DNA of 64,000 nucleotides. Source: Candidatus Latescibacterota bacterium. GTDB taxonomy: Bacteria; Latescibacterota; UBA2968; UBA8231. The translations under genes and the position numbers were made by a program. Location of the stretch: positions 3,296,001 through 3,360,000 of the forward strand of contig OZ242005.1 in NCBI GenBank assembly GCA_965204725.1, read 5' to 3'. The notes below the pieces were generated by a model. It was not told the DNA's origin. It saw only the letters and a program-made list of their open reading frames with translations, and did not search any database. The stretch's first letter is position 1. Each line of letters starts with the position of its first letter. This document shows, piece after piece, positions 8,953 to 61,025 of the stretch.

Positions 8953-8965
8953 GTTGCGGGGGCTG

Positions 8966-8994
8966 TTGACGGCGGCAGGACCATCGGACATGTT
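8966..8994 (+). promoter_or_regulatory. Putative sigma70-type promoter, probably the original promoter of the MNT-like/HEPN pair, now separated from it by IS5
   Basis: TTGACG-N17-CATGTT immediately left of the IS; the -10 match is weak. Confidence 0.4.
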
Positions 8995-8995
8995 A

Positions 8996-20447: not shown

Positions 20448-21187
20448 GGCTGGCGCTGACTCAGTACTTCGTACAGGGCAATGCCCGCGGCCACCGAGGC
20501 GTTGAGTGAGCCGATGGCAGTGCCCGGCATGGGGATGTGCAAGAGGGCGTCGCAGCGCTTTTGCACCATGCGCCGCAGCCCCTTGCCCTCGCTGCCAATG
20601 ACTAGGGCGCAAGGCTGAACAAAGTCTGCGGCCGGCAAGGGCTGCTCGCCTTGGGCGTCGAGTCCGGCGATGAAAAGCCCACAGTCCGCGGCTTTTTGCA
20701 GGGCCTTTTGCAAATTGTCAACCCGGCAGACGGGTACGTGCTGGGCCGCGCCGGCCGCGGCCTTGAGCGCAGCCGGGGAGAGTCCGGCGGCGGTGCGGGA
20801 CGGCACGACCACGCCTTGCGCGCCGAGCGCGTGGGCACTGCGGATTATGGCGCCGAGGTTGTGGGGGTCTTGGATTTGGTCGAGAAAGAGGATCAGGGCT
20901 GGCGTCGGCAGATGGGCGAGCACATGGTCAAAGTCGGCGTACGACGCGGCGGCCGCATAGGCGACGACGCTTTGGTGGTGGGGACCGGCGAGGCGGTCGA
21001 GCTGGGCGCGGTCGCGCAGATCGTAGGGAATGCGCGCCTGCCGAGCGCGGGCGAAAATTTCGTCGATGACCGGGCCGTGCGCCCCCTTGGCGACGAGTAG
21101 GCGGCGCAGGGGGCGTTTGGCGCGCAGGGCTTCGAGCACGGGGTGGCGGCCCCAAATCAGGTCGTCGGATGGCTGTTTATCAGACAT
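20444..21187 (-). CDS. rlmB: 23S rRNA (Gm2251) 2'-O-methyltransferase, SpoU family
   Basis: GRHPVLEAL, DPHNLGAIIRSA, IGSEGKG, SLNASVAAGI. Confidence 0.93.
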   Translation of the reverse strand: MSDKQPSDDLIWGRHPVLEALRAKRPLRRLLVAKGAHGPVIDEIFARARQARIPYDLRDRAQLDRLAGPHHQSVVAYAAAASYADFDHVLAHLPTPALILFLDQIQDPHNLGAIIRSAHALGAQGVVVPSRTAAGLSPAALKAAAGAAQHVPVCRVDNLQKALQKAADCGLFIAGLDAQGEQPLPAADFVQPCALVIGSEGKGLRRMVQKRCDALLHIPMPGTAIGSLNASVAAGIALYEVLSQRQP

Positions 21188-43954: not shown

Positions 43955-45658
43955 GTGTATGAGTGTATGGACTTTTTTCACCAGCGTCGGCCCCTTGCCT
44001 CTGCCTTGGTGCTGGCCGTGCTGCTACCGAAATCTGTTCTACCCCAATTTACCGACCAGACGGAGGAGGCGCACATCGCCTTCCAATACGTGGCTGGCGG
44101 ACTTGAGAAAAAGCACATTGTCGAAACCTCCGGCGGCGGTGCTGCTTTTTTTGACTACGATAACGACGGCGATCTCGACCTATACACGGTCAATGGTGCT
44201 ACGGTCAATACCTATCGGCAAAAATCCGGCCCGGGCAATGTCCTCTATCGCAATCGAGGCAACGGAACCTTTGCCGATGTGGCTTTACCAGCCGGTGTCG
44301 GGGACCGCAGTTGGGGCATGGGCTGTACCGTGGGCGACATCGACGGCGACGGGCACCGCGATCTTTACGTGACTAATTATGGTCCCAATGTCCTCTACCG
44401 CAACCGAGGCAACGGAACCTTCGCGGACATTTCCACTGGGGTAGCAGGGAACGATTATAGCTCCAGCGCCGCTTTTTTTGATTACGATGGCGACGGCGAT
44501 CTCGACCTATACGTCGCCAATTATCTTGTTTACGATTTTGACTCTCCTCCAGATAAGGTCTGCACCTACGAGGGAATCGAGATCTTCTGCGGTCCCCAGG
44601 GCCTACCCGGAGCTGCCGACCTGTTCTATCGCAACAACGGAGACAATACCTTTACCGACGTCACTCGGCCCTCGGGTATCTCTTGGGCCAACCGCTATTA
44701 TGGGTTGGGTGTACTGCCCGAAGACTTCGACAACGATGGCGACATCGATATCTTCGTAGCCAATGACGCAACTCCCAATGTGCTCTTCGACAACAACCGC
44801 GATGGCACCTTTAGCGAAATTGGCCTAAAAGCAGGCATTGCGTATAACGAATACGGCGAAGAAGAGGCGGGGATGGGAGTCAGCGGCGGAGACTATGACG
44901 CCGACGGAGACCTCGACCTCTATATAACCCATTTTTTTCGCGAGAGTAATACCTTCTACCGCAACGACGGACCAGGCCATTTCAAAGATATAACGGCCCA
45001 GACTGGTCTAGAAGAACCCACGCTTGGAATGCTGGGGTGGGGCACCCAATTTTTCGATTATGACAGGGATGGCGACTTGGATCTATTCGTCGCTAATGGC
45101 CATGTCTATCCGCAGGTGGCTAGCGCTATTGCGAGCACTTTCTATCCCCAGCGCAATCAGTTAATCCGCAACGAAGGCAGCAATCGTCTAACCGATATAG
45201 GGGCTGCGGCTGGCCCGGGAATGGACCTTAAAAGAGTCAGCCGTGGTGCCAGTTTCGGCGACTACGACAACGACGGCGATATGGACATTTTCGTCGTCAA
45301 TTTGGATGAGGTGGCCACCCTGTTGCGCAACGATTTTGCCTCTGCCAACAACTGGCTCGTAGTACAACTTCTGGGGCGTGGCCCCAATCGCGATGCCGTC
45401 GGAGCCAAGATACGCTTGCTGGTCGACGGCCGACCCCAGTGGCGCACGGCTAATGGTGCTTCTAGCTATCTCTCCTATAACGATATGCGTATTTTCTTTG
45501 GCCTAGGTGAGGCGGAAGAGGCAGATGAAGTGGAGATCACTTGGCCCGATGGAACTCGTCAGACAGTGCCATCGGCACCGGCCAATAAGCTGTTGGTAGT
45601 TCGCCAGAACGGCTCCTACGCCTTCTTGGAGATGGGGGTCAACCTTTACGCAGAGTAG
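43955..45658 (+). CDS. CRTAC1-family FG-GAP / ASPIC-UnbV protein
   Basis: FDYDNDGDLDLY repeats, ANGHVYP, SRGASFGDYDNDGD, FFGLG..WPDG; signal peptide. Start may be the ATG at 43967. Confidence 0.93.
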   Translation: MYECMDFFHQRRPLASALVLAVLLPKSVLPQFTDQTEEAHIAFQYVAGGLEKKHIVETSGGGAAFFDYDNDGDLDLYTVNGATVNTYRQKSGPGNVLYRNRGNGTFADVALPAGVGDRSWGMGCTVGDIDGDGHRDLYVTNYGPNVLYRNRGNGTFADISTGVAGNDYSSSAAFFDYDGDGDLDLYVANYLVYDFDSPPDKVCTYEGIEIFCGPQGLPGAADLFYRNNGDNTFTDVTRPSGISWANRYYGLGVLPEDFDNDGDIDIFVANDATPNVLFDNNRDGTFSEIGLKAGIAYNEYGEEEAGMGVSGGDYDADGDLDLYITHFFRESNTFYRNDGPGHFKDITAQTGLEEPTLGMLGWGTQFFDYDRDGDLDLFVANGHVYPQVASAIASTFYPQRNQLIRNEGSNRLTDIGAAAGPGMDLKRVSRGASFGDYDNDGDMDIFVVNLDEVATLLRNDFASANNWLVVQLLGRGPNRDAVGAKIRLLVDGRPQWRTANGASSYLSYNDMRIFFGLGEAEEADEVEITWPDGTRQTVPSAPANKLLVVRQNGSYAFLEMGVNLYAE

Positions 45659-45661
45659 GAC

Positions 45662-47335
45662 CTATGGGCTCCTATTCTCTCCGAAAGCGGCGTTGAGGTT
45701 ATCCTCCCGAATAACCACTTTCGCTGCGTATTTATTGCGCACTTCTTCGGTAAACTGATTAAAGGCCTTTCTGTTTTTTTCTCTTTTAAGTTGGGACCGG
45801 ACTCTCCACTCGGCCTCCGCAAAAGTCTCTCGCTTGCGTTCCCTAGAAAGCACCTTAAATATAGAATAACCTTCATTGACCTTGGCCGGACCAGTGAGCA
45901 CTCCGATCTCGGCTTTTTCGGCGAGTTCTACAAAACCGCCGAAAAAGTTCTTTTCAAAAAGGTGGAAGTGGAATCGGCCTTCTTCATCCCGATCCTCTAG
46001 CGACCGGATAGAATACTTCTTGGCCAAGTCGCCTAATGGGGCTCCCTTTTGTATCTGCTCCATCAACCTCAGGGCCTCGGCCTCCGTCTGTACTAGAATC
46101 TCCTGTACTTCGATTTGCTCGGGTTGCAGATACCTTTCCGCATGGGCCTCATAAAACTGGCGCAACTCGTTTTCAGCGATGGTCACTTTAGCTCTTAGGA
46201 CTCGCGCCCTGAGGGCTCGTAGCAAAAATTGCTTTGCCTGATCTTCCAACCACTCGATCGTCTCTGCTTCCTCGTCTATGCCAGCACGCAGGGCCGCTTC
46301 CACGAGCATCGCATTGGGCACGACATGGCGCTCGGCAAAAGCGATCACTTGGCTGGAGTCGCTGAGTTGGGCTAGGGCATTGCCTTTCAGGGCGTGGCCA
46401 GCTTCTGCCAAGTCTTGAGCGGTTATTTCGCCGCCGTCGTACCGATAGAGAACTATATTGCGTTCAGTCTCCAGGGCAAAAGATGTACCGCCACGCACTT
46501 TTTCGACAATGAGCGCGAGACCTTCCCGATCCAATTCGAGGTGGTATTTTTCCTTGAGTTCAGCGACTAAAATCGATTGAGCCCGCTGCTTTTCCTCCTT
46601 TTTCAGTCCCATTTCGATCGCCAGTCTCCTCTGGGGACTGAGTTCGATGGTAGAATCGGCGATGACCGTGAAAATCGAATAGTGCCCGCCGATTTTTATG
46701 GGTTCGGAGATTTCGCCTAAGGCGAGGGAAAACAGTTTGTCCTGAAGGGGGGTGACCATGTTTTCTCGGGTGGTATAACGGCCTAAGTCCCCACCTTGGG
46801 CCGAGGTTTCTTTGTTTATGGACCATTTCTTGGCGACTTGCCCAAAAGGCACCCCATTTTTGAGTTCTCGGAGGACGACCAAGGCATTTTCTCGGCTGGG
46901 GACCATTATATCGGCCAATCTGATCGCTCTAGTAAGCCCCATCTGTTCAGCGTATTTCCGCACCTTGCTCTCCTCCACTTCCTCTTCTACCTCCAGTGCT
47001 CTATCTTGGAAAATGCTGACCAATTTTTTCCGCCGGACCCCTTCCAGTCGGGCGCGAAATTCAGGGCTTTCGTCGAGATCAGTCGTCTTCGCCTCCATGG
47101 TCAGCAGTTCGATATTGATCATGGTGTTCAAATGATTCTTCGCTTCTTCTACCCTAGTGGACTCCGCCTTGGCATATTCGGGGAGGTCATCTATAAATTT
47201 CCGCAACTGGTCAACCGTTATCTCCGCATCACCTATCTGAGCAACGACTCGTTCTCCTATTTCCACTGTGCAACCCATGAGCGCGGCAAAAAGTACGAGT
47301 GGTAAAAGACAAAATACAGTCATTTCTCTTGACAT
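45662..47335 (-). CDS. Lipoprotein peptidyl-prolyl cis-trans isomerase with two parvulin (PpiC) domains (PrsA/SurA-like)
   Basis: Lipobox LMGC; VAQIGDAEIT; FGQVAKKWS..GGDLG..GEISEPI; second domain EILV..LAKKYS..G.LTGP..GYSIFKV. Confidence 0.9.
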   Translation of the reverse strand: MSREMTVFCLLPLVLFAALMGCTVEIGERVVAQIGDAEITVDQLRKFIDDLPEYAKAESTRVEEAKNHLNTMINIELLTMEAKTTDLDESPEFRARLEGVRRKKLVSIFQDRALEVEEEVEESKVRKYAEQMGLTRAIRLADIMVPSRENALVVLRELKNGVPFGQVAKKWSINKETSAQGGDLGRYTTRENMVTPLQDKLFSLALGEISEPIKIGGHYSIFTVIADSTIELSPQRRLAIEMGLKKEEKQRAQSILVAELKEKYHLELDREGLALIVEKVRGGTSFALETERNIVLYRYDGGEITAQDLAEAGHALKGNALAQLSDSSQVIAFAERHVVPNAMLVEAALRAGIDEEAETIEWLEDQAKQFLLRALRARVLRAKVTIAENELRQFYEAHAERYLQPEQIEVQEILVQTEAEALRLMEQIQKGAPLGDLAKKYSIRSLEDRDEEGRFHFHLFEKNFFGGFVELAEKAEIGVLTGPAKVNEGYSIFKVLSRERKRETFAEAEWRVRSQLKREKNRKAFNQFTEEVRNKYAAKVVIREDNLNAAFGENRSP

Positions 47336-47374: not shown

Positions 47375-50086
47375 TTAGTCCAAACCGGCAAATACCGTGG
47401 CAAAAGCCATTCTGCCTGTTTCGGTTTCGTTGTCGCTGGCTCTTCTGGTCAACCTGAGTCCCATCAGGGTCGTCAGACTATAGCCCAAGTAATTTGAATT
47501 ATTGGAGAACTGGGCCGCGCCGACAATTTCACTGAAGTCGTCCAGCAGTCCTTCCTTGACCGCTGTATCCGAATCCCTGAGTTGCTGGAAAACGGTATAT
47601 TCCACGCCTGCCTGCATAGTGGAGTTATTAAACAATGGCCACCGGGCCAGTAAGGAAAAAATCAGGGTGTCTTCCCTGCGTTTGGGATCTGATTTAAGTG
47701 CTGGCGACTCTATCCTCAGTTCATTTTTGATTTTGGGCTGGATATCGAGATTAACGAATTTGAGAGTATAGTCCACCTTATTTATCAGGCCGACAAAAAC
47801 GAAGTCCCGTTGCAAATCGGGCTGTCTTTCCCTTTGATGCCAGTGGTCGTATTTCAGCTTGTTGACGAGATTTAGATTCTTCAGCTTGGTATAGCTGAAG
47901 CTTATATAGGACGAGTTTATCCACGTATTCCGGGCCGCCAGAGGATCAATGGTAGGGACGTTGCGCCTCTCGAATTCGTCCCACTGGCGAAGGTCATTCT
48001 CTATATTGTCCTTAGCCAGCCTAAAATTCTCAAAAATCCTCACCCTTCCTAGGCCGGGGTAGTCCTTTTCTAGGGTGAAAAGCAAATAATGGGTGGTATT
48101 TTCTCCATCACCGGCAATGAGACTCTCGTCAGTGCGGCCGATAGTCAACCTCATCTCTGGAGTAATGTTGACGCCCGCATAAAAATTGTACCCGCTTAAA
48201 TCCCGACCATAGGGAAAGTCTGCTTCATCATCGTTTTCAAACCGGTCTATCCATATATTGTTGTTCATATCTATGCCGAACAGATACTCGGGGCGGTCCG
48301 TGGAATAGCGCAGAAAGGGCTCGTCGTAGTCAGGCACTAAGTTGGGCAGATCTTCACTGTCGTTTTGATTGAAATCGGAGATAAAATCGACGTTTTCATC
48401 CAAGCCGGGAAATACATTCAAGTCGATGCTTTCGTTTATCCTCTGCCAATCGGGGTACCGATCTTGATCATCGTTGTCGTCGACGAGTTCGTAGTAGAAT
48501 CTCGTCCGGTCCTCGTAATCTATGTTGATCTCGCCTCGGGCCAAGATGGCACTTGTATTGTAATTGTGGTCCATACTGTAAGCCTCGCCGAAAAAGAACC
48601 ACGGCTGAACGGTTCTCGACAGATTCAACATCCAGCCATCGCCTTGGTCAAAAGCCGACAGGTGTTTTGTATGCTGCCTGTTGGGGTATTTTCTATAACT
48701 CCTACTGCGGTCGAATTCGCCGTAGAAATCAAGTCCCCCAATGTTGTTCGCCTCCAGAGTGAAACCGAAAATTTCGGTGGCGGTCGGCAAACCGTACGGG
48801 ATTTTGAGGACTCTGAGATTAGAGCCATCTTTGACGTTTTCTTGGGCTCTGGCTGCCAGCAGAAACACGTTGCTGTTTTGACGGTTAGTCTGGCGGTTTG
48901 AAGACACCTCGATTCTGTAGTCGTTGGCAACCACCAGTTCAAAAGTCACTCTTCTTATCTCCGAAGGGTCGGGGCCGGTGTAGGTTCCCTCGGAAAAGTC
49001 GTATACTAGTTCGATCTGTTCAGAGCCGCTGGCTTCCCAGAAACCCAAGCGCTGAAAGCCGCCTTGAGGCGAGGGCTTGAGACCGGCCTCGCTGGCTCGG
49101 ACAACCTCTCGCCTAAACACCCGTTCCCCCTCTTCATCAATGCTTTCGACTTCGGCTTCTATGATCATATCCCAAGCGAAGAGGGTAGCGCCGCCTTCGT
49201 TATCTTCGGGCGAATCGTCGGTCAGACGGACGAAAAGCTGGGTGATATTTTCAGCGTTTTGACTAGAAGTGATCGAACCACTCCTAGGGGTTCCTTCAAA
49301 AGCGTCCAAGAGTTGGAAGGAGTTGTGGGCACTTACATAGTTGGCACCGATGCTGATGAAATCACCCACTTGGGCAACGGCCCGCCCGCCCATCAGCGTT
49401 GTCAAGCTGGTCGTTTGGTTGACTGCCGGATTGCGAGGACCGGCTCCGCCGGGAGAAGAGATCCGAGAGAGGATCGTCGTGATCTGGTATTTGTCGGCTT
49501 GGTAGTCCACTTGGATTCCGTCCAAGGCCGGCTTTGAGAAGGTCATTGGGGTAAGGGTCGAGCGGATCTCGTTGCCTATGGTGATGGCTAAGTTATGTTG
49601 CCCCTTCTGATCAGAGGCAATGACCAAATTGCTGAAAAAGTTTTGGAATCTCTCGGTTTTGAATAAGTTGCTGCCCCCTTGCTGGGGCTGCGTTTGGGAC
49701 CAGTCGTAGACCAACCATCCCCTAGTGATATAGGAACCGTAAATATCGTAAAAATAATCCCCGGCTAAATTGATATCCACATAGCGATTGTAGTGATCCC
49801 TGGCGTAGTTGGTGTATTCCCACTGTTTCCAGCGGTATTCTAGGAAAAGTTCTTGCGGTACGTACCACTTTTTGACCGCCGGGTCCAAGGCACCGAACAG
49901 CACACCGGACCCGGTTGGTTCAAAGGTGAGTTCGGCTCCTCGGCGCATACCTTTTATACGCATTGGATCGACATCTTGGGCTTGTGCGTCGGTGTCGAAA
50001 GCTAACATGAAAGAGAGAAGGGAACAAACTATGGTCGCTAGACTAATACCGCGCATTAAAGTGCTGCAAGTATGGTAGGTCAGCAT
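47375..50086 (-). CDS. Large secreted hypothetical protein (903 aa), putative outer-membrane beta-barrel with Asp-rich inserts
   Basis: Signal peptide (..AQA/Q); alternating aromatic strands; DDNDDQD, DENVDFISD, DMNNN..D motifs; terminal strand MAFATVFAGL. CDS is clear; function inferred. Confidence 0.8.
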   Translation of the reverse strand: MLTYHTCSTLMRGISLATIVCSLLSFMLAFDTDAQAQDVDPMRIKGMRRGAELTFEPTGSGVLFGALDPAVKKWYVPQELFLEYRWKQWEYTNYARDHYNRYVDINLAGDYFYDIYGSYITRGWLVYDWSQTQPQQGGSNLFKTERFQNFFSNLVIASDQKGQHNLAITIGNEIRSTLTPMTFSKPALDGIQVDYQADKYQITTILSRISSPGGAGPRNPAVNQTTSLTTLMGGRAVAQVGDFISIGANYVSAHNSFQLLDAFEGTPRSGSITSSQNAENITQLFVRLTDDSPEDNEGGATLFAWDMIIEAEVESIDEEGERVFRREVVRASEAGLKPSPQGGFQRLGFWEASGSEQIELVYDFSEGTYTGPDPSEIRRVTFELVVANDYRIEVSSNRQTNRQNSNVFLLAARAQENVKDGSNLRVLKIPYGLPTATEIFGFTLEANNIGGLDFYGEFDRSRSYRKYPNRQHTKHLSAFDQGDGWMLNLSRTVQPWFFFGEAYSMDHNYNTSAILARGEINIDYEDRTRFYYELVDDNDDQDRYPDWQRINESIDLNVFPGLDENVDFISDFNQNDSEDLPNLVPDYDEPFLRYSTDRPEYLFGIDMNNNIWIDRFENDDEADFPYGRDLSGYNFYAGVNITPEMRLTIGRTDESLIAGDGENTTHYLLFTLEKDYPGLGRVRIFENFRLAKDNIENDLRQWDEFERRNVPTIDPLAARNTWINSSYISFSYTKLKNLNLVNKLKYDHWHQRERQPDLQRDFVFVGLINKVDYTLKFVNLDIQPKIKNELRIESPALKSDPKRREDTLIFSLLARWPLFNNSTMQAGVEYTVFQQLRDSDTAVKEGLLDDFSEIVGAAQFSNNSNYLGYSLTTLMGLRLTRRASDNETETGRMAFATVFAGLD

Positions 50087-50124: not shown

Positions 50125-51888
50125 TCAATAGACTATAGGGACAAGTTTCGTCTTGCTCTCAGATCCTGAATCTGCATCAATTTCCACTCGCACCAAATAG
50201 ATTCCGGGCAGCACTTTGGCACCGCTCCCGTCTGTTCCATCCCAAGCCCTTTGGTATCTCTTACTGGGATCCAACCCTGAATAGATCGCCTTTATACGCC
50301 TTCCAGAAAGATCGTATATATCCACCGAAACTAAGGCACCACCTGTCAGGTTGACGATGTCGTAGGTCACCAAGACTTCATCATTTAGGCCGTCGCCGTT
50401 GGGAGTAAAAGGGACGGGAGTCACTTTCATGGAATGAATGAGGTCTTTGCCCACCGAGATCTCGACCGAAAGGTCATCCCCCTGCGCCTCAAAATCAGAG
50501 GCTGCATCGCCCTCGGTGACTACTTGGGGCAGATGGTCCGGTTTTTGGCTATCGGAGACTCTGCCGGCAAAAAAAGTGTTGTACTGCAAAGCCACGTTCT
50601 CAAAGACTACTCGCAAGGTACGGTTCCCCACAATCCGGGGGAAGCTAATTTGGCCCCCGTCTTCTGTATCCACCTTTTCCCATCCGACATCGATCCCGTC
50701 TATTTGCACAGATCTCACTACGTCTACTGGTGCCATAGTCTTTAGTTCGAGACGGTTAAATCCTCGGCTGTTGACGGTTCTCACGGCATAGGTAAAGGGA
50801 GTATTCTGCCCAATCAGAGCACTTTGGGGCCATATCTCGCCCACCAGCGAGTCGGCTAGGGAAGGAGATACCTCAAAGGCGAGGGAATCAACGGTCGCCG
50901 CTGCTAGAATATCGCTGGTCTTGAGGAGTAAACGGAACTGAAAAAAACGACGCGGGGCTGGTGATTCAATAGCCGTATGCACTCCGGCAGGATAGGGGGA
51001 GGACCAAGTGCTCCAAGACAGCGAATCGCTGGGATCCGGTGTGTTGCCGCTCCGAGTCGATAGGATAGCATCTGTTTTCGTTGGTTCGCCAATGCTACTC
51101 CTAGCCCATGTTATATCGCCAAAGATAGCGGGCTGTTCTCGATCAAATACTCTTGAGGTATACGATGCTGTAGAGGCGAAACCTGCACCAAAGACTTGAA
51201 ATTCGTCAATCTCCCATTCCCCGCGTACCAGTTGTTTCACCTCTATGAAACGAACAAACTGTAGGGGGATGTCTAGGTCAATGGTCGGCTTGAGGTTGCG
51301 TTCCTCGGTTTTAAAAACCTTGAAATCCGGCGTCCCGGCTAGGGTTTTCTGCTCCTCGCTGCCGTCGTTCAGCAGCAATTCATAGCCTTTTAGGAAAAAC
51401 TCTTCAAATCCCTTGCGCGGGAAAAACTTGATCCGATTGACCCCGAAGCGCTCACCCAAATCTATCCTGAATATAACGCCTGTAGGAGAACCGCCCTTTA
51501 CTTCAAAGGCCTTGGTCGTGTCGCCGCTGACCATGTGCGCCAATTGTTTATTCAAAAGACTCTGAGATGTTTCAAGCACTATTCTCGCGTTGGGCGATGT
51601 TACGGCCCCTCCTCTTTCAAATATTTTTAGGACGATATTGTCTTCGGGACCTGTCTGAGCCGGCTGAATTTGGCCGGGATTGGCGTCAAAGTCGATAACC
51701 GATATCTCGGAATAATGGCCACCCCATGCTAGGGTCCCTGGACCGCCTCCAATGACGACCTTCACCCCATAGCCTTGGGTCGGTACAAGTCCCTGCAATA
51801 GACAAGAGAACGCTAATAGCGCGGTCTTGACTAGTGGTGGCTTGTTAAACCTGTTCCTCTCGGATCGTATAAGATTAATAGGAGACAT
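50125..51888 (-). CDS. Secreted protein with discoidin-like region and FlgD-Ig/T9SS-like C-terminal domain (paralogue 3)
   Basis: IDLGERFGVNRIKFFPR; WSTWS..Y..SPAPRRFFQ; P.PFTPNGDGLND..YDLSGR..WDGTD..G..V.PGIY. Confidence 0.85.
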   Translation of the reverse strand: MSPINLIRSERNRFNKPPLVKTALLAFSCLLQGLVPTQGYGVKVVIGGGPGTLAWGGHYSEISVIDFDANPGQIQPAQTGPEDNIVLKIFERGGAVTSPNARIVLETSQSLLNKQLAHMVSGDTTKAFEVKGGSPTGVIFRIDLGERFGVNRIKFFPRKGFEEFFLKGYELLLNDGSEEQKTLAGTPDFKVFKTEERNLKPTIDLDIPLQFVRFIEVKQLVRGEWEIDEFQVFGAGFASTASYTSRVFDREQPAIFGDITWARSSIGEPTKTDAILSTRSGNTPDPSDSLSWSTWSSPYPAGVHTAIESPAPRRFFQFRLLLKTSDILAAATVDSLAFEVSPSLADSLVGEIWPQSALIGQNTPFTYAVRTVNSRGFNRLELKTMAPVDVVRSVQIDGIDVGWEKVDTEDGGQISFPRIVGNRTLRVVFENVALQYNTFFAGRVSDSQKPDHLPQVVTEGDAASDFEAQGDDLSVEISVGKDLIHSMKVTPVPFTPNGDGLNDEVLVTYDIVNLTGGALVSVDIYDLSGRRIKAIYSGLDPSKRYQRAWDGTDGSGAKVLPGIYLVRVEIDADSGSESKTKLVPIVY

Positions 51889-54526
51889 GTACTAAGCGGT
51901 AGTCCGAGGTATTTCTACTCGATTTTGAATCGACCTTAATGTCGATCCTCAGCACATATATGCCAGGGGCCACCAAATCCCCGAATTTATCGACTCCGGT
52001 CCAGACCACGGAATGCCGCCCCGTGGTTATGTACTCATCGCGCAGTTCGTGAACAAGACGCCCACCTAGATCGTATATTTTCACCTGTAACGGCGTTGAT
52101 GCCTTCACCCGCATGAGTGAAAAACTCACAGTCATATCATCGTTGATGCCGTCGCCGTTGGGGGTGAAGATCTTATTTTTGACTTCGATATCCCCTAGTA
52201 CCACTCCTCTTTCAAGGGCTAAGATCACGGTTTTTTCGCTGTCCGTGGTCTCGTTCGCATCGCCTGGGTCCACTCTTTGCCACGAATTGGGAATGGAAGA
52301 ATGGCCGATAGACCCATTGAAGAAGGTGGTAAAATCGAATGTGGTCGCCGCAAACTGGATTTCGATCAACGCGGCCCCGCCGGTCGTCTTTATGGGAGTG
52401 GGCAGGCGCACCCAAAGCGAATCGGAACCACCGCCTACCACCTCAAAGCCCTCGCTCTGGGCGGTATAGGTTTGAGGCGGCTGCCCTGTGAGGTCCACGT
52501 GGGCTTGCTTGAATTTCATTTTGACGCCGGAGGGAGCTTCAATGAGAATTTCGTCAAATCCCTCGTTGGCCGCCTCAAAGGTCGTGCGGATGAAATAGGA
52601 AAACGATTGCTCAGCACCAATCACCTCGAGTTGGGCGGGCAGCACCTCGCCAATAACTGTTTTGGCGATTGGCGTTACAAAATTGAGTTTCACCCAACGC
52701 AGTGTAGCCGCTACAAGAGGATTTTCCGTGATAAAGGTCGCTTGGATAGCGACGAATTTCCGCGGACTAGGCGAGGTGATTTTGTCTCCCGAGTTGAAAT
52801 AGCGTTGACTCCAACTGCTCCAATCGCTGCCCGGGTTGGTTTGGGTAACGACGGGTCCAACAGAGGCATCCCCAAAGAATTTTTTGTCCGTAGCGTACGC
52901 TTCCGCTGCTTCTTCTTCGGTGCCCGGAAACAACTCACCGTTCTTTTTATAGTAGAGCGTAGTAGTTTTGACCGTATTGCCGGTGCGGGTCTGGAGAATA
53001 ATATCCGTACCCGGCGGTATATCCGCATCCCACTCAATAGACGCCAAATTTTGGGGAGTGGCCCCCAATTCTATGAACGCCGAAGGCCCGTCAAAGACCG
53101 ATTCGATCCGAGCCTCGGGCATGTACCCCTCGCCGAAAAACTGAATCTCTGACAAGCCGTGGCGTCCGGCCCTTACATGGAGCTTATAGGTAAAAGAAAA
53201 ATGCTTGACTTTGGTGAGTGGGAACTTAAAATCGTGGTACGATTCACCAGAGTTGATATGGTCGAGCGACCCTACTGTTTTCCAGGCCAGACTCCCGCCA
53301 GCATTGGTGGAGCCATCTGAGACTTCAATGCGGTAGGCGCGGAAAGGCCCAGGGGGGTTACTACTGGCTTGGAGTACGCGGATATTGTCCAGAAAGAAGG
53401 CCCCTCCCAGATCTGCCACTAACGCACGCTCGACATCGGGCGGCTGCGAAGGCAGCAGCCTATCGGGATTGTACCCCCCTTGAGCGGGCCAGTACAACGC
53501 CTTTTCTACACTATATATTACCCCGTCTACCACCACCCCTTCAGCCCCGTTGTTTTCCCAACTCGTCACTTTGCCACCCCGCTCCAGTACGCCAATGCCG
53601 ATATTGTCGCCGATCGACCAGACTTCCACTTCCGCCAATCGAGGCAACTCGCGGCGATAGTAAACGACAGGACCTTGACTGGCCGTGCCAGCCAAGGTCT
53701 CCCAATCTTCGCGTCCTTCCAGCAATCGCGTCCTTCCCGAGGCTTCCCGACGAAAGTATTCTATATCGCCCTGTTGCTCGGGATCAAGGGCCTCATAATT
53801 GGACTGGGAAACTTGTCTTGCCTTGCCAAAATCGCTGTCTGTGACGCCGACAGAGACGAATCTGATCACATCGCCGGTAAAATCTCCGCGCACCTGGGTC
53901 CATTTGGTGGGCAACTGGTTGGTCAAATCGACTTCAAAGACCCGTTCATTCTTGATGGGCTTGTTCGTTGAGAAGCGTTTCCTGTACACCAGCGGTCCGA
54001 TGATCGTCTCCCCTTGAGAGGTGAGGACCTTGAATTGGAGAAAGGGGTCTCCCAAATCCTCCCCGACAAACTTGAGAACGATTTTATTGGCCGATACGGC
54101 TCGCCCTAAATCGATTTGTACCCACCAATCCCTAAGAGGGACGGAAGTGTCCGGCTCCCAGTAGGTGTCCATCCTGCCGTCCATGAGGTTTGCTGCGCTC
54201 AAGCGATTGGAGCCGGCGTCCCATATCCCACCGCCGAACTCGGAGGCATTCAAAACCGCGTTAATGCCGGGGACTATCTTTTCGGCACCATCTATTTCGA
54301 GCCTAGTGTTCTTGCGTATAAAGGCCGGTTTCACACCATCCTCGGTGATCTGGATGGTCTTTGCCACCGCCTGCCAACGAGCCCAGTGATCCTTGGACTC
54401 AATGACAGCCACGCCGTCTTGGATAGAAAAACCCTCTTGCCCCCAAGCGACTTCACCTAAGATCATTCTACCCAAGATACAGGCCAAGCTAGTGCTCACC
54501 AGCTTGAATGTTCTCTGCCATGCCAT
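51875..54526 (-). CDS. Secreted protein with two discoidin-like regions and FlgD-Ig/T9SS-like C-terminal domain (paralogue 2)
   Basis: NLMDG..TYW..WVQIDLG; DLGGAFFLDNI; WSSWS..Y..SPSPRKF; FTPNGDGIND..YDLGGR..W.G.D..G..VAPGIY. Confidence 0.85.
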   Translation of the reverse strand: MAWQRTFKLVSTSLACILGRMILGEVAWGQEGFSIQDGVAVIESKDHWARWQAVAKTIQITEDGVKPAFIRKNTRLEIDGAEKIVPGINAVLNASEFGGGIWDAGSNRLSAANLMDGRMDTYWEPDTSVPLRDWWVQIDLGRAVSANKIVLKFVGEDLGDPFLQFKVLTSQGETIIGPLVYRKRFSTNKPIKNERVFEVDLTNQLPTKWTQVRGDFTGDVIRFVSVGVTDSDFGKARQVSQSNYEALDPEQQGDIEYFRREASGRTRLLEGREDWETLAGTASQGPVVYYRRELPRLAEVEVWSIGDNIGIGVLERGGKVTSWENNGAEGVVVDGVIYSVEKALYWPAQGGYNPDRLLPSQPPDVERALVADLGGAFFLDNIRVLQASSNPPGPFRAYRIEVSDGSTNAGGSLAWKTVGSLDHINSGESYHDFKFPLTKVKHFSFTYKLHVRAGRHGLSEIQFFGEGYMPEARIESVFDGPSAFIELGATPQNLASIEWDADIPPGTDIILQTRTGNTVKTTTLYYKKNGELFPGTEEEAAEAYATDKKFFGDASVGPVVTQTNPGSDWSSWSQRYFNSGDKITSPSPRKFVAIQATFITENPLVAATLRWVKLNFVTPIAKTVIGEVLPAQLEVIGAEQSFSYFIRTTFEAANEGFDEILIEAPSGVKMKFKQAHVDLTGQPPQTYTAQSEGFEVVGGGSDSLWVRLPTPIKTTGGAALIEIQFAATTFDFTTFFNGSIGHSSIPNSWQRVDPGDANETTDSEKTVILALERGVVLGDIEVKNKIFTPNGDGINDDMTVSFSLMRVKASTPLQVKIYDLGGRLVHELRDEYITTGRHSVVWTGVDKFGDLVAPGIYVLRIDIKVDSKSSRNTSDYRLVHVSY

Positions 54527-54572: not shown

Positions 54573-56543
54573 TCAATAGACCACGGCGATAACGCCGCTC
54601 TTGATGCCCTCTTCCGATTGGATGTCTACCGCTATTTGATACAAATAGAGTCCTGGGGGTACCAGCCGATTGGAGTGGTCTGTTCCATCCCAAGGGTGGG
54701 AATACTCTCCGATGGAAATGTCCCCGGCGTATATTTGCTTAACTAGCCGGCCGGACAAGTCGAAGATTTCCACGGAGACGGGAACCTGAGCTGTCACCCG
54801 CAGGAGCTTGTAGGAAATATGCACCACGTCGTTGGTGGCATCGCCGTTGGGCGTAAAGGGATTGGGCTCAATTTGCGGTGTAGATACTAGTGAACTAATC
54901 AGCGATGTTTTCACCGAAATTCCGTCGCTCTCAATCTCGTCGTCGGCGTTGCCTGGGTTGATGCGTTGGCGCACTTCGTTTGGCTCGGCTCTGTTGAACA
55001 CCTTACCAGTAAACAGCGTACCTACTTCCCGCAGTACCGGAGCATTGAACACCACCTCGATCAAGGCCCCGCTGTCGGTCGGTTCCAGCTTGCGCGGAAA
55101 GTCGATCTCAAAGCCCAAGCCATCCGCCGTTTTCGTCCAGAGAAAATTGTCGTAATTGATCGCGTCTATGCGCAGCGAATCGACCGAAACCACCCCCGAG
55201 GGCGTGGAAATTTCCACACCGTCAAAACCTCGGTCGCTAGCCCGGATGGTCGGTCGAATAAAATAGGTGAATTGCGTCACCTGCCCCACTTGGGTGTCCA
55301 CCGGGAAAATTTCGCCCACCAAGCTATGCACGGCCGGTGGCACGGAGGCCTTGAACTCGACATAGTCAATTTTGCCTCCGTCCTCGACAGTAGAAAAAAA
55401 GTCCACTTTGAGCTGGAAGAATTGGCGAGGACTAGGGGAGACGATGCTGGTCCCCGAGTTTTTGAACAGATAGGGACTGGACCAGAAACTCCAGTTTTCC
55501 GTATCGGGGCTCACTCTATCCCGGGGTTCTACCGGCTTGAGAACGTCGAGCAACTTGCGGTATCGGCTCTTGTATTCGCTCAGGGTCAAGTCGCCACCGC
55601 CATCGAGGAATTGAACGCTGTCTCGCTGCTCGGGCCGCAACTGCCAGAAAATATCGGGATGTGGGTCCGTTCCCGTCCGGGTGCGGATATTGATCTGGGC
55701 GTCCGTATCTTGGCGGCCCGACCAGCGGATCTCGCCCCAACTGGCCAGATCGCCCAATTCGATTATTTCGGATTCATACGAGGCTCGCCCCAAGAAACCA
55801 CCTCCGTAGAGTTCAAAATCGGCAAGCCCTATCTCCTTGGGTGTTGCGCGAAAAATCAGCAGTTGGATCGTTTGGGTTGATATGGGAGGATCTAAAATCA
55901 CGCTAACTTCAGGTTCGGTGTTTTCCTTTACTTCTGCTATGGTGGGGAAATTGGGAATGTTTTGAGCGATGTTGACTAGTCTACCATCGAAGGCACCAAT
56001 GGATATCCGCTCCAGAAAGTGTTCTGGTTTTTCCGCCAGAGGGCGAAATCTCACCTCTCGGATGAGAAATCGACCGCCTAAATCGAAAGTCACTTGTTCA
56101 TTGATCAACCGCCGGCCCTGCGGGCCAGCAGTGCCCACATGGAAGCTCTCTGGAGCTATAGCTGGCCACGTAAGGGCCGTAGTCGGATCTGCATCGATCA
56201 TCGCCTGTCCGATCAGTTTATTTTGATTGGCAAAAAGCTTTACCCGCACCCAGCCGTCTCGGCTCAAGAGAGTTGCGGCGATGTCCTCGTCCTCAGTAAA
56301 AAAATTGGGTTGCAGTGAACCCGCCTGCAAAGAGTCCAACTCGAGGGCATCCTGCAGTTGAGAGGCTGTCCAGTCGATTTCCCTGAAATCGATGCCGCGG
56401 CTTTCAAGGCTGTCCTTTTCTGCTGTTGAAAAAGGTGCGCCAATCCTATAGATGATCACGCTGGCGGCATTTAGGGGCCAGAGGCCGACACCCAGTAAAG
56501 CGAGTAAGAGCAAGCCTGTGGACTTGGGAGGGAGCATGCTCAT
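54573..56543 (-). CDS. Secreted protein with FlgD-Ig/T9SS-like C-terminal domain (paralogue 1)
   Basis: Signal peptide from the ATG at 56543 or 56537; FDLGGRFLIREVRF; WSFWSSPY..SPSPRQFFQ; PNPFTPNGDATND..FDLSGR..WDGTD..VPPGLY. Confidence 0.85.
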   Translation of the reverse strand: MSMLPPKSTGLLLLALLGVGLWPLNAASVIIYRIGAPFSTAEKDSLESRGIDFREIDWTASQLQDALELDSLQAGSLQPNFFTEDEDIAATLLSRDGWVRVKLFANQNKLIGQAMIDADPTTALTWPAIAPESFHVGTAGPQGRRLINEQVTFDLGGRFLIREVRFRPLAEKPEHFLERISIGAFDGRLVNIAQNIPNFPTIAEVKENTEPEVSVILDPPISTQTIQLLIFRATPKEIGLADFELYGGGFLGRASYESEIIELGDLASWGEIRWSGRQDTDAQINIRTRTGTDPHPDIFWQLRPEQRDSVQFLDGGGDLTLSEYKSRYRKLLDVLKPVEPRDRVSPDTENWSFWSSPYLFKNSGTSIVSPSPRQFFQLKVDFFSTVEDGGKIDYVEFKASVPPAVHSLVGEIFPVDTQVGQVTQFTYFIRPTIRASDRGFDGVEISTPSGVVSVDSLRIDAINYDNFLWTKTADGLGFEIDFPRKLEPTDSGALIEVVFNAPVLREVGTLFTGKVFNRAEPNEVRQRINPGNADDEIESDGISVKTSLISSLVSTPQIEPNPFTPNGDATNDVVHISYKLLRVTAQVPVSVEIFDLSGRLVKQIYAGDISIGEYSHPWDGTDHSNRLVPPGLYLYQIAVDIQSEEGIKSGVIAVVY

Positions 56544-56552
56544 CCTTTGGCG

Positions 56553-56592
56553 AAAATAAAAATAAAAAGGGGGGCGATAACCTTGCCCCCCC
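56553..56592 (-). terminator. Intrinsic terminator between the WGxIK gene and the FlgD trio
   Basis: Minus-strand ggggggc/gcccccc stem followed by ttttta tttttatttt. Confidence 0.85.
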
Positions 56593-56621
56593 AATTACCA
56601 ATCTTTCCCTAATTGTTCTAC

Positions 56622-57551
56622 TTAGCGGGAGAAACTCGCCTTGATATTTCCCCAGCTATCCGCCTCGACGGAAGTGCCCATGTCCTCGCCCGGTACCCAG
56701 ATGCTCTCATCATAGGGGAGCAGGACATAGTCGACCATAGCGGTAGCTTTGAAGTAGAGTTCTGTATCGCCGCTGTTGGTCCAGTAGCCGTTGTAATTGC
56801 CTTCAGCACCGTCGTCGTCGTCCTGAACGGCAAAGCCAATACCCATGATTTCTCCTGCCACCATGGTATGGACGATCACATCTTCGTCTTCTATGCCCGT
56901 AGAGCTAGTAGGCAAATCGTCGAAGGGAGTGAACCACATTTCCATGGACAGAGTTCCGGCCCCGCCGTTGATGTCACCCTCAAAACTCCATTTGGCACCA
57001 GAATAAGGCTCGACTCCGGCCCACGGAGCTCCGCCCCAGAGCCACATGTGATTTTCTTGGTGCAGCGTGTAGCGGTAATTCTGGGACAAAGCCCCTTCCC
57101 ATCTCTCCGGGTCCAAATCCGCCGATTGTACATTCTGGAAAATAGCGTCGCCGCTATGGTCGAAGTCTAGGGTTACCTCGACCGTATCGAAATTGTTTTC
57201 GATAGTTCCATAAAAGAGGTCGTCGAACCGTTCCTCCATGAAATACAAGATGTTGGTCACTGGACTCCAACCGAAAATGATGCGCTCAGCTAGATTGGAG
57301 GGGTCGGGGTCTCCTTGGGTGCCGGTGACAGTCTCGATCAGATCCTCATGGGTCACCCAGAAAACCGAGGGTACGTTGTCCCATTCGCTTATGTCGCCGT
57401 CCATCTGGACATCTCTTATGCCATCGACTCCAATAGGCACCTGAACGGCGGCCCAGTTTCTGTCTGACCGCAGGTGAGCCGAACTGGACGCGACCGTGAA
57501 AAGGATAAGACCCAATGCCAAGAAGTTATAACTCGTTGCTTTGTTCATCAC
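56622..57551 (-). CDS. Secreted acidic CBM9/DOMON-like protein with C-terminal TSVEADSWGNIKASF motif
   Basis: Signal peptide; MDGDISEW, GWS....LYF....DD, DTVEVTLD.D, GFAVQDDD (CBM9-like); terminal WGxIK. Confidence 0.8.
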   Translation of the reverse strand: MMNKATSYNFLALGLILFTVASSSAHLRSDRNWAAVQVPIGVDGIRDVQMDGDISEWDNVPSVFWVTHEDLIETVTGTQGDPDPSNLAERIIFGWSPVTNILYFMEERFDDLFYGTIENNFDTVEVTLDFDHSGDAIFQNVQSADLDPERWEGALSQNYRYTLHQENHMWLWGGAPWAGVEPYSGAKWSFEGDINGGAGTLSMEMWFTPFDDLPTSSTGIEDEDVIVHTMVAGEIMGIGFAVQDDDDGAEGNYNGYWTNSGDTELYFKATAMVDYVLLPYDESIWVPGEDMGTSVEADSWGNIKASFSR

Positions 57552-57709: not shown

Positions 57710-59416
57710 TCATTTGGACAGGGCGCGTCCCGCGCTGCTCTTTCCATCTATGTGGACAATGCCCTCGCCCTCTTGAAGTACCACGAGCCTATTGGCAGAG
57801 AGATTTTCAAATCGTTCCTCTAGGCCACTTGGCCAGCGCACTACCAACAAGTCGATGGACTCTCTCTGCCCCAAGCCGAAATGGGCCCTCAAGTCATTGT
57901 GCGAAAGATAGCTAGCACCACTCCGAATTTCGGCACTTTGCGTGAGTCCTCCACAGCGAACCTCAACCCAGGCCCCTATACCGTCTCTGTTGCTTTCAGT
58001 CCCTATAGTCTTGACCATTAACCAGTTGTTCTTATTGCCGCCATCGTTGTGCAACAAAGTGGGGCGATCGTTTAGGTTCAGGACAAATATGTCCAGATCC
58101 CCATCGTCGTCGTAATCCCCAAAGGAAGCCCCTCTGCTCACTTTTTTAATTCCCAAGCCCTCCCCTGATAGCTGCGATACCTCGACGAAGGTGCCGTCGC
58201 CCAAGTTTTCAAAGAGTTGATTGGTCTGGGCATAGCTAGTGCCTAGGTTGGCCCTGTCCAATTGTGGAAAGAGGTGGCCATTGGCGACGAAGAGATCTTT
58301 ATCGCCGTCGTTGTCATAGTCGAAAAACTCGGTGCCCCAAGCCAAAAACTGGAAACTCTCTTTGCCCACGCCCGCGTCAAAGCTGAGGTCGGAAAAGAAC
58401 GCGCCGCGGTCGTTGTGGTAAAGCGTATTGGTTTGCTCCCAAAAGTTGGTGACGAATATATCTTGGTATAGGTCATTGTCGTAATCCCCATAGGCAATGC
58501 CCATACAGCCTTGAGCCTCACCGCTTTCGCCATAGGCAGCACCGATCATCCAGCCGATGTCGGCAAAAGTGCCATCGCCTTGGTTTTGATAAAGGAAATT
58601 GGGGCCCGTGTCGTTGGCCACATAGATGTCCACATCGCCGTCCCGGTCGTAATCGCCGCCGATCACGCCCATACCGTAGAGCCTATCTTGGTCCACCACT
58701 CGCGCCTCCACGGTCACATCCGCAAAAGTTCCGTCGCCTTGGTTGCGATACAGGATATCCCCCCCCCCCTTCATGCCGCGGGGCCCAAAGTGAACCCTTA
58801 AGCCTTTCCACATATAGGACCTATTAGGAGTGGTCTGTAGAAAGTGCTTGAAATCGACGTAGTTGGCTACGTACAAATCTAGAGATCCGTCGCTGTCGTA
58901 ATCGAGGAAGGCACATCCTGTGCTGAACCGCTCGTCTCCTATTTGGGCGTACTCGGTTACATCGACAAAAGTCCCGTCGCCTTGATTATCGTACAGTACG
59001 TTCCTGCCGTAGTTGGTTATATAAATGTCCAAGTCGCCATCGTTGTCGTAATCGCCGACGGCGCATCCCATCCCCCAGCCAGTGTCGCCCAAGTTCGCTT
59101 CGTCGGTAGCATCGACGAATTTACCGTGCTCGTTTCTATAAAAGGTATTGCGTGGATGCTCTTGGCCTGAAAAGCCAACCACTTTCGACCCGTTCAAGAT
59201 GTACAAATCCAAATCACCGTCTTGGTCGTAGTCGAAGAAAGCCGATCCTCCCATCATGCTATCGACCAAGTACGTCTGCTCTCTATCCCCGGAGACGTTC
59301 TGCGCCACAACCCCTACTTCCTCCGCTACATCCACGAACTGGACTCGCCTCTCTACTGCCCGTCCTTCGACGGCTAAAAGCCGTGAGGAAATAAGGATTA
59401 AAAAAAAGAAGTGCAT
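57710..59416 (-). CDS. CRTAC1-family FG-GAP / ASPIC-UnbV protein
   Basis: FDYDQDGDLDLY repeats, ANGH, SRGASFGDYDDDGD, HFGLG..WPSG. Confidence 0.93.
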   Translation of the reverse strand: MHFFFLILISSRLLAVEGRAVERRVQFVDVAEEVGVVAQNVSGDREQTYLVDSMMGGSAFFDYDQDGDLDLYILNGSKVVGFSGQEHPRNTFYRNEHGKFVDATDEANLGDTGWGMGCAVGDYDNDGDLDIYITNYGRNVLYDNQGDGTFVDVTEYAQIGDERFSTGCAFLDYDSDGSLDLYVANYVDFKHFLQTTPNRSYMWKGLRVHFGPRGMKGGGDILYRNQGDGTFADVTVEARVVDQDRLYGMGVIGGDYDRDGDVDIYVANDTGPNFLYQNQGDGTFADIGWMIGAAYGESGEAQGCMGIAYGDYDNDLYQDIFVTNFWEQTNTLYHNDRGAFFSDLSFDAGVGKESFQFLAWGTEFFDYDNDGDKDLFVANGHLFPQLDRANLGTSYAQTNQLFENLGDGTFVEVSQLSGEGLGIKKVSRGASFGDYDDDGDLDIFVLNLNDRPTLLHNDGGNKNNWLMVKTIGTESNRDGIGAWVEVRCGGLTQSAEIRSGASYLSHNDLRAHFGLGQRESIDLLVVRWPSGLEERFENLSANRLVVLQEGEGIVHIDGKSSAGRALSK

Positions 59417-60967: not shown

Positions 60968-61025
60968 GGAGCAATTGTCCTCTCTTAGAGACCACCGTGC
61001 GTCTTGCCGAACGGGTCGGGGGAGA

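Follow-up and report, generated by a model that had tools for sequence, protein, structure and literature searches.

Very large β-barrels that are formed in the outer membrane by a single chain are known from Deinococcus radiodurans, whose SlpA has 30 strands and pore insertions stabilised by aspartate metal sites, carries an accessory β-sandwich protein and probably acts as a scaffold rather than as a pore (PMC9388160). In Bacteroidota, proteins carrying a C-terminal domain (CTD) of type B that belongs to a type IX secretion system (T9SS) are anchored at the surface by binding to PorP-like barrels and require cognate PorP/SprF shuttles, to which they are often linked genetically (PMC9143113, PMC12618676). 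Here we describe the protein P0001, which is encoded in a 64,000-nucleotide stretch of DNA (the window) of Candidatus Latescibacterota bacterium (assembly GCA_965204725.1, contig OZ242005.1, positions 3,296,001 to 3,360,000 of the forward strand). P0001 is predicted to be a Sec-exported outer-membrane β-barrel of the type inserted by the β-barrel assembly machinery (BAM). We tentatively read it, at somewhat less than an even chance, as a SlpA-like, Ca2+-stabilised scaffold barrel that docks co-encoded CTD proteins in a role like that of PorP/SprF, in loci resembling polysaccharide utilisation loci (PULs).

The open reading frame (ORF) of P0001 had been recognised correctly by an initial annotation made from the sequence alone, which left the strand unstated; the gene lies on the minus strand (Table 1). 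A Shine-Dalgarno-like AGGGTGGA is located 7-8 nt ahead of the ATG. A scan for promoters and terminators gave counts that were not above those of shuffled sequences (15 vs. 13.4; 28 vs. 21.2). The individual sequence features named in the initial annotation were all found again. These are the signal peptide, with a hydrophobic N-terminal helix followed by A34-Q35-A36 and Q37, the Trp/Tyr-rich WYVPQELFLEYRWKQWEYTNY at residues 74-94, the motifs DDNDDQDRYPD (537-547), DENVDFISD (563-571) and DMNNNIWID (606-614), and the C-terminal MAFATVFAGL (892-901). Based on the sequence and the helix in the model described below, cleavage would occur after A-Q-A, and Q37 is invariant in alignment A1. Neither the entire protein, scanned against Pfam and NCBIfam, nor its N-terminal 114 residues, scanned alone against Pfam at E ≤ 10, yielded a match. 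The scans returned no Plug, POTRA or usher domains, which is in line with the earlier statement that such signatures are missing.

The AlphaFold2 (AF2) model of P0001 from 92 sequences (down to about 25% identity) has a predicted local distance difference test score (pLDDT) of 81.8 and a predicted template modelling score (pTM) of 0.76; a model from 31 close homologues reached a pLDDT of 64. Residues 154-902, about 750 in number, form long antiparallel strands of 12-17 residues, with turns of 2-5 residues on one side alternating with longer loops. About 28 membrane strands were counted, with 26-30 being plausible, as the count was taken only from the DSSP string by parity back from the C-terminus. 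The same parity would place the termini and the short turns in the periplasm and the long loops outside. The Trp/Tyr-rich N-terminal block, which has pLDDT values of 36-57 up to residue 120 and of about 70-78 over residues 121-150, is presumed to be periplasmic or lumenal. P0001 ends in FATVFAGLD and the C-terminal consensus of the family is F-A-T-[VM]-[YF]-A-G-L-[DE], without a terminal aromatic residue. In the family profile, dyad alternation of hydrophobicity exceeds one Kyte-Doolittle unit in 20 of the 28 strands. Positive antiparallel covariation z values were obtained for 25 of the 27 sequence-adjacent strand pairs (271-sequence alignment with an effective number of sequences of about 120).

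Comparison of the model with the PDB by Foldseek resulted in 69 matches at E ≤ 1e-3. All matches listed are outer-membrane barrels, with probabilities of 0.85-1.00. The best ones are to D. radiodurans SlpA (8ae1_A, E 7e-8, TMq 0.24; 7zgx_A), followed by FimD, LptD and MtrB. Model and Foldseek results support the outer-membrane barrel proposed in the initial annotation. That P0001 is instead a soluble or surface-located β-rich protein, mislabelled by AF2 and Foldseek, appears extremely unlikely. Such a protein would fit the missing covariation signal for closure, the modest lipid-facing hydrophobicity, the eight of 28 strands that lack clear alternation and the lack of a terminal aromatic residue. 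It would not fit a list of matches made up exclusively of outer-membrane barrels, strands of membrane-spanning length joined by short turns, the signal peptide or the SurA-like chaperone encoded next to the gene.

Established barrel classes were considered and rejected for P0001. A TonB-dependent transporter of the SusC type would require a Plug or TonB_dep_Rec match, and neither was obtained. For a chaperone-usher usher there was again no Pfam match, and P0001 ends in a barrel strand; for Omp85/BamA/TamA, which combine POTRA domains with a 16-strand Bac_surface_Ag barrel, matches to either were missing. No LptD, LptD_2 or OstA match was found, and the window contains a separate LptD_2-type gene (Table 1); therefore, P0001 is not the LptD of this organism. 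P0001 does not match the SprA/Sov family models, whose proteins have more than 2000 aa and 36 strands compared to its 903 aa, and the SprA chain 8gl6_A ranks only 36th in Foldseek (TMq 0.18). A likeness to LptD, MtrB and FimD/PapC exists at the level of Foldseek E values (1e-6 to 1e-5) and in that these are large barrels of 24-26 strands which surround a further protein or a plug and need their lumen filled. P0001 differs from them by the absence of any family HMM match, and the module in the window lacks cytochromes as well as usher N- or C-terminal domains. A protein with a cytochrome c domain was seen in the flank of one (L074) of ten sampled paralogous loci.

We regard SlpA as the closest structural and mechanistic analogue of P0001 and possibly a remote relative. 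Both are very large single-chain outer-membrane barrels. P0001 differs from SlpA in the absence of an S-layer homology (SLH) domain and of a coiled-coil stalk (the model contains no long helix beyond that of the signal peptide at residues 14-30), in the TM-score of only 0.24, in the strand count of about 28 compared to 30, and in belonging to a multi-copy family linked to genes for CTD proteins. Remote members of the P0001 family, which match P0001 at E 1e-40 to 1e-77 with about 30% identity, gave sub-threshold matches to Pfam SlpA_C in seven of 24 cases scanned. In the subfamily represented by P0182, which itself matches P0001 at E 4e-59, a PF21620 label had been precomputed for 41 of the 120 proteins listed. 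Of 39 of these that we scanned, 38 match SlpA_C (PF21620) at E ≤ 1e-3, with a best score of 33.5 bits compared to a gathering threshold of 35. The matching piece maps to residues ~418-526 of P0001, a region of four barrel strands ahead of the loop. These near-matches are a lead for remote homology and do not make P0001 a member of the SlpA family. The 'new barrel class' of the initial annotation thus holds as far as Pfam, NCBIfam and PDB sequence matches are missing and TM-scores do not exceed 0.25, and is weakened by the near-threshold SlpA_C matches in a remote subfamily and by the top rank of SlpA in Foldseek.

The same observations could be taken to mean that P0001 is an abundant structural protein of the SlpA/OmpM type, which gives stability to the outer membrane or holds an S-layer in place and has its gene neighbours by coincidence. 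SlpA as the best structural match, the sub-threshold SlpA_C hits in remote relatives and the metal-stabilised lumen insertions of SlpA would suit such a role. We regard it as very unlikely, given the absence of an SLH domain and a stalk, the many divergent paralogues per genome, which are unlike a single abundant structural protein, and a synteny with CTD proteins that is too constant to be incidental.

The 'long central insertion' of the initial annotation proved to be real. It comprises 124 residues (506-629) between the strands 496-505 and 630-642, is devoid of regular secondary structure in the model and has pLDDT values of 55-89. The two flanking strands are each other's best covarying partners, indicating that residues 506-629 are a true loop insertion, which by strand parity would occupy the position of an extracellular loop. 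This insertion is the best-conserved part of P0001. In the 271 sequences, with an identity floor of about 25%, 22 acidic or amide positions are conserved at 0.95-1.00 each: D537, N538, D539, D540, D542, D546, D563, D567, D571, N573, N575, N582, D586, E589, D606, N608, N609, N610, D614, E617, D619 and D623. Judged from the alignment, the acidic motifs are far beyond chance.

A Ca2+ loop of the EF-hand or DxDxDG type has 12 residues with oxygen ligands at positions 1, 3, 5, 9 and 12, the last being Glu. Loop III of the insertion, D606-x-N608-x-N610-x-x-x-D614-x-x-E617, fits these positions, and each of the five residues is conserved at 0.99-1.00. Position 6 is most often occupied by Gly (0.38), and 95 of the 271 sequences follow the strict pattern. 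When the acidic-loop region was scanned alone against Pfam at E ≤ 10, no match was obtained, including none to EF-hand or TSP_3. The 'Ca2+-binding-like loops' of the initial annotation are supported at the level of sequence, and the acidic loops would accordingly be candidates for binding Ca2+. Weak covariation between the first strand segment (154-161) and residues 599-619 would fit a packing of the N-terminal block against the loop and is not strong evidence for it.

The protein had been called an orphan, which turned out to be wrong. A word-indexed search scored 7999 candidates, of which at least 1119 are homologues at E ≤ 1e-3, and the 120 homologues listed from it are all unnamed or annotated as 'hypothetical protein'. 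An exhaustive HMMER search of representatives at 50% identity yielded 734 at E ≤ 1e-3, of which 495 remained at 1e-10 and 193 at 1e-30. On contigs of one genome per species 640 stretches were matched, of which 624 were confirmed as loci; the best 80 of these are the basis of all counts at the level of loci. Nearly all of the 80 derive from metagenome-assembled genomes of Latescibacterota or Gemmatimonadota, the exceptions being one record each with Handelsmanbacteria, Planctomycetota and 'uncultured bacterium' in the title. Two loci (L061 and L080) belong to records labelled Gemmatimonas phototrophica. An uncultured Latescibacteria chromosome carries the closest locus (97%), and OY282352.1 and OZ241362.1 are among the closed Latescibacterota chromosomes with the closest copies. 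Individual chromosomes carry four to six of the 80 loci, with six on each of OZ244561.1 and OZ220690.1 and five on OZ220721.1. A second copy was not found within the 64-kb window.

In some of the loci L064-L077 and L079 barrel genes are found in tandem, with products of 909 and 910 aa or of 932 and 925 aa (e.g. 10001-12703 in L064 together with the next ORF), and L079 holds three of them, again beside three CTD proteins. Such tandem barrels may form hetero-oligomers. Longer fused forms of 1582-4515 aa were not found, which is weak evidence. The ESM Atlas returned unnamed clusters only, and the nearest named cluster, DUF6029 at 0.88, is a lead and nothing more. The family is undescribed in Pfam, NCBIfam, the PDB and the literature searched (bioRxiv supplements and subscription journals were outside its reach). 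That search found no paper pairing 'Latescibacter' with 'type IX secretion'. In the text of a genome paper on sponge-associated Latescibacterota (PMC12993501), the terms secretion system, outer membrane, T9SS, FG-GAP, sulfatase and TonB are all absent.

In the window, the barrel gene occupies the eighth place in a closely packed row of nine genes that all run in one direction (Table 1). Two genes for FG-GAP/ASPIC proteins and one for a tetratricopeptide repeat (TPR) protein head this operon. The three genes directly upstream of the barrel gene code for proteins with C-terminal domains of the CHU_C/FlgD_ig type, confirming that the upstream proteins carry CTDs as initially stated. A gene for a peptidyl-prolyl isomerase (PPIase) follows downstream. 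The neighbourhood was compared in the 80 loci using our own ORF calling and BLAST labelling, which resulted in 93 barrel ORFs with a minimum length of 800 aa; four loci in which the barrel ORF was not listed (L021, L022, L027 and L056) were left out. The next upstream gene on the same strand encodes a CTD protein in 76 cases, another barrel in 14 and an unlabelled ORF in one, and a contig edge intervenes in two. A gene of the 587-aa type is directly upstream of 61 of the 93 barrels; since class labels are best BLAST hits, they can swap among the paralogues. Within ±5 genes, the 587-type gene is present near 69 and the PPIase gene near 55 barrels, in addition to the counts given in Table 1 for the F5/8C-CTD, 673-type and 309-aa genes, and FG-GAP/ASPIC-type genes near about 20.

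The three CTD proteins of the window are mutually paralogous, with 25-30% identity over 430-680 alignment columns. An alignment of 47 CTDs of about 108 aa was built from 45 proteins encoded directly upstream of barrels (the one in the window included) and the two others of the window. It has the consensus P-x-x-F-T-P-N-G-D-G-x-N-D ... Y-D-L-x-G-R ... W-D-G-x-D ... P-P-G-x-Y ... V-x-V-V-Y-COOH and a mean column identity of 51%, which is well above that of the whole proteins. The C-terminal residue of 73 upstream proteins is Tyr in 72 cases and Phe in one. All 47 CTDs match TIGR04131 (T9SS type B), Pfam CHU_C and FlgD_ig at E ≤ 0.01, and the type A model TIGR04183 is also matched by 37. In Pfam, the whole CTD proteins score slightly higher than the gathering threshold. 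In addition, the window encodes a PorZ-like protein, which covers nearly the full NF052228 profile at E 1e-52 (179.6 bits compared to a cutoff of 260) and suggests that a T9SS-type machinery is present in this organism. According to a review, T9SS possibly occurs in other FCB (Fibrobacteres-Chlorobi-Bacteroidetes) phyla, including Gemmatimonadetes (PMC11285876).

These features invite comparison with PorP/SprF, which are proteins of roughly 300-400 aa. Similar to these, the gene of P0001 adjoins genes for type-B-like CTD proteins, genomes contain several cognate paralogous pairs, and the role proposed here is that of holding a CTD protein at the surface. P0001 differs in having the Ca2+ loop and the N-terminal block, in being accompanied by three CTD proteins per barrel and in occurring in phyla outside Bacteroidota.

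In the reading that we prefer, P0001 would form the core, within the membrane, of a surface module that is conserved in Latescibacterota and Gemmatimonadota and present in multiple copies. As a barrel of such width cannot remain open, its lumen should be filled, namely by its own Trp/Tyr-rich N-terminal block and the 124-residue loop. Two or three Ca2+ ions would hold this loop rigid, as the Asp metal sites do for the lumen insertions of SlpA. In the outer membrane, the barrel would dock the three paralogous surface proteins with discoidin domains that are encoded beside it, each of which would end in a type-B-like T9SS CTD with a free terminal Tyr, and would thereby take the role that the small PorP/SprF barrels have in Bacteroidota for CTD proteins of type B. 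Assembly would be chaperoned by the SurA-like PPIase lipoprotein. At the cell surface, the whole module would serve to capture substrates, which are probably glycans; many of its copies are located next to genes of inner-membrane transporters and sugar-acid enzymes. The data show the ORF, the family, the motifs, the strands of the model, the insertion between two paired strands, the synteny and the resemblance of the CTDs to known families. We infer closure of the barrel, filling of its lumen, Ca2+ binding, docking of the CTD proteins and the class of substrate.

Several results weigh against this reading. For the pair of strand 1 and strand 28, the covariation z is -0.82 (rank 316 of 378), giving no signal of closure. 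The covariation is noisy, with non-adjacent pairs (23/25, 1/3, 2/10) outscoring true neighbours and three non-adjacent pairs in the top four. TM-scores in Foldseek are at most 0.25 for the 92-sequence model, and the 31-sequence model was similar apart from a value of 0.27. The check by AlphaFold and Foldseek that the initial annotation had suggested returned barrel strands without a structural neighbour above 0.25; the closed barrel it looked for received no covariation signal. Sequence and profile searches of the PDB with A1, A2 and A5 gave nothing or a chance match of 30-40 residues to a restriction-enzyme subunit, and SlpA was not found. The SlpA_C matches in the remote subfamily are all below the gathering threshold and cover ~70-130 of the 656 profile positions (~177-330), and P0001 itself does not match SlpA_C at E ≤ 0.01. 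Compared to PorP/SprF, P0001 shows no sequence similarity (no PF11751 or TIGR03519 match) and is about three times larger. The whole CTD proteins reach NCBIfam type B scores of 17.9-29.9, below the cutoff of 35, and, since FlgD Ig-like models match the CTD as well, the latter may represent an ordinary Ig-like domain instead of a secretion signal. The sub-cutoff PorZ-like gene is the sole sign of a T9SS seen, with SprA, GldKLMN and PorV not searched genome-wide. The number of CTD proteins stays at three in modules with two barrels, so that the stoichiometry is not simple. For the docking, finally, the argument consists of the synteny and the PorP/SprF analogy. The 'scaffold or translocon' for the CTD proteins in the initial annotation is likewise supported only by this synteny, which is very strong, and by the analogy. 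A complex prediction of the barrel (residues 36-903, A2) with the upstream CTD (A3) scored 0.00 in two runs without controls and counts neither way.

The strict order of CTD gene and barrel gene would also be expected if the barrel itself exported the three CTD proteins as a dedicated, self-contained and T9SS-independent translocon, with the PPIase as periplasmic chaperone, loosely like SprA with its PPIase or like an usher. The frequent presence of the PPIase gene near the barrels, FimD, PapC and SprA among the Foldseek matches and the conserved free C-terminal Tyr of the cargo, which resembles a barrel-targeting signal, point in the same direction. SprA reportedly co-purifies with a PPIase. 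The module includes no energy source or motor genes, P0001 shows no similarity to SprA or usher families (TM-scores to both are only 0.17-0.20), and the PorZ-like gene suggests a conventional T9SS; an export function of this kind is therefore considered unlikely. We give a similarly low chance to a more far-reaching version, in which the barrel and the PPIase, together with three CTD proteins ending in Tyr and the CBM9-like protein that starts with His, form a hitherto unrecognised, self-contained outer-membrane machine of Latescibacterota and Gemmatimonadota whose barrel both exports and permanently docks its cargo. The C-terminal strand of the cargo would then insert at or into the barrel, independent of SprA. 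If true, this would be a new class of outer-membrane secretion and assembly, of which each genome would hold many duplicates serving different substrates.

The flanks of the paralogous modules point to a further possibility. In a sample of ten loci, comprising 50 unlabelled ORFs of at least 200 aa, we found membrane proteins with DUF6785 and DUF6784, parts of ABC sugar transporters, MR_MLE enolase-superfamily, UxuA, GFO_IDH_MocA, Amidohydro_2 and PhyH proteins, GDSL esterases and leucine-rich repeat (LRR) proteins. A DUF6785-like ORF is present in 38 of the 80 loci. Such flanks resemble PULs and are variable. In locus L001, the orthologous module is flanked by a 651-aa DUF6785/DUF6784 membrane protein. 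The window retains a 39-aa remnant of this protein (Table 1), and a deletion appears to have removed its gene from this genome. The literature search found no paper mentioning DUF6785 or DUF6784.

Based on these flanks, P0001 could be an import channel of a PUL-like uptake system, in which the discoidin-domain CTD proteins and the CBM9-like protein catch a polymer and the barrel, gated by its Ca2+ loop, lets fragments into the periplasm, where DUF6785 or ABC transporters take them up. Like SusC/RagA, P0001 is a multi-copy outer-membrane barrel with co-encoded surface binding proteins and adjoining transport and catabolic genes, and SusC-like chains are among the weaker Foldseek matches of the 31-sequence model. 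It differs from SusC/RagA in lacking a plug, a TonB box and a TonB_dep_Rec match, in its strand count and in its partners, which carry CTDs and are not SusD-like lipoproteins. The four to six paralogous loci per genome among the 80, as known for SusC/D loci, the transporters and sugar-acid enzymes in the flanks, the discoidin and CBM9-like binding domains of the partners and the size of the barrel all argue for import. This is countered by a module without TonB box, plug or energising partner and by the fact that a passive pore of 26-30 strands is not known and would be leaky unless plugged. The flanking catabolic genes are variable and, apart from the remnant, absent from the window, and an import function would leave the near-constant CTD gene directly upstream unexplained. 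We consider an import channel possible and rather doubtful. Both import and export can partly coexist with the docking role that we prefer.

If the docking role is true, it provides the first functional hypothesis for a family of hundreds of clusters, with several copies in each genome, in two widespread and barely cultured phyla. Type-B-like CTD proteins outside Bacteroidota would use a quite different cognate barrel of about three times the size, which would bear on the sorting and anchoring of T9SS cargo and on the sealing of giant barrels. The module would be a non-Sus counterpart of PULs and would matter for carbon turnover by these phyla. LptD and MtrB have 26 strands; a single-chain barrel of about 28 would thus be a new size class between these and SlpA with 30.

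Table 1 Features of P0001 and of further genes in the window (coordinates refer to the 64,000-nucleotide stretch)
Feature	Coordinates	Strand	Basis and remarks
Barrel-protein ORF P0001	47375..50086	minus	903 aa + stop, uninterrupted; ORF call and translation, model, Foldseek
Signal peptide, residues 1-36 (predicted)	49979..50086	minus	Hydrophobic helix 14-30, then A34-Q35-A36/Q37
Trp/Tyr-rich N-terminal block, residues 57-150	49637..49918	minus	Many invariant W/Y/P in A1
Predicted barrel strands 1-15, residues 154-505	48572..49627	minus	DSSP of model, alternation, covariation; variable excursion ~291-376
Non-regular insertion, residues 506-629	48200..48571	minus	Three near-invariant acidic loops; core 533-626 = 48209-48490
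Predicted barrel strands 16-28, residues 630-902	47381..48199	minus	pLDDT mostly 80-97; hairpin covariation
FG-GAP/ASPIC protein	61026-63284	minus	First gene of the operon
TPR protein	59432-61111	minus	Listed start overlaps preceding gene by 86 nt; signal-like segment near residue 49
FG-GAP/ASPIC protein	57710-59416	minus	Domain scan
309-aa secreted protein, distantly CBM9-like	56622-57551	minus	Invariant His directly after signal peptide; near 71/93 barrels
673-aa CTD paralogue	54573-56594	minus	True start probably M18 or M20, signal peptide after it; near 75/93 barrels
883-aa paralogue, F5/8 type C (discoidin) + CTD	51875-54526	minus	Near 82/93 barrels
587-aa protein, discoidin-like region + CHU_C/FlgD_ig CTD ending ...VPIVY	50125-51888	minus	Gene directly upstream of barrel
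557-aa PPIase, two parvulin (rotamase) domains, SurA/PrsA-like, lipobox-like L-M-G-C	45662-47335	minus	Directly downstream of barrel
DUF6785 remnant, 39 aa	42718-42834	minus	97% identical to residues 452-490 of the 651-aa DUF6785/DUF6784 protein of L001
LptD_2-type LptD homologue	18054-20612	minus	E 3e-61; housekeeping block with MutS, S1, PriA, Maf
PorZ-like protein, 731 aa: Reg_prop repeats, PorZ_N beta-propeller, FlgD_ig C-terminal domain	11392-13587	minus	NF052228 (T9SS_PorZ)
IS4/IS5-family DDE transposase	8909-9901	plus	Domain scan

The mechanically assigned TTG/GTG starts of the 673-aa and TPR proteins are probably too far upstream. In the 309-aa protein, the signal peptide is followed by an invariant His in all 33 aligned homologues (A4), and the mature protein probably starts with this residue. 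A second invariant His is part of D-x-D-H-S-G-G, and further D/E residues are invariant. Two of the 33 family members match Pfam CBM9_1. The combination of an N-terminal His with another one is reminiscent of copper proteins with a 'histidine brace', for instance lytic polysaccharide monooxygenases (LPMOs), and the protein could act within the module as an oxidative or metal-binding partner. The window contains four FG-GAP/ASPIC (UnbV) paralogues in total, located at 1836-3443 (+), 43955-45658 (+), 57710-59416 (-) and 61026-63284 (-).

Adjoining the transposase gene are the genes of a sacsin-like P-loop/ATP-binding protein (3579-4271, plus strand), of an 879-aa protein without family match (4246-6885, plus) and of a protein with an RNA ligase domain (7092-7781, plus). 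Together with the transposase, these three genes may form a mobile or defence-type islet.

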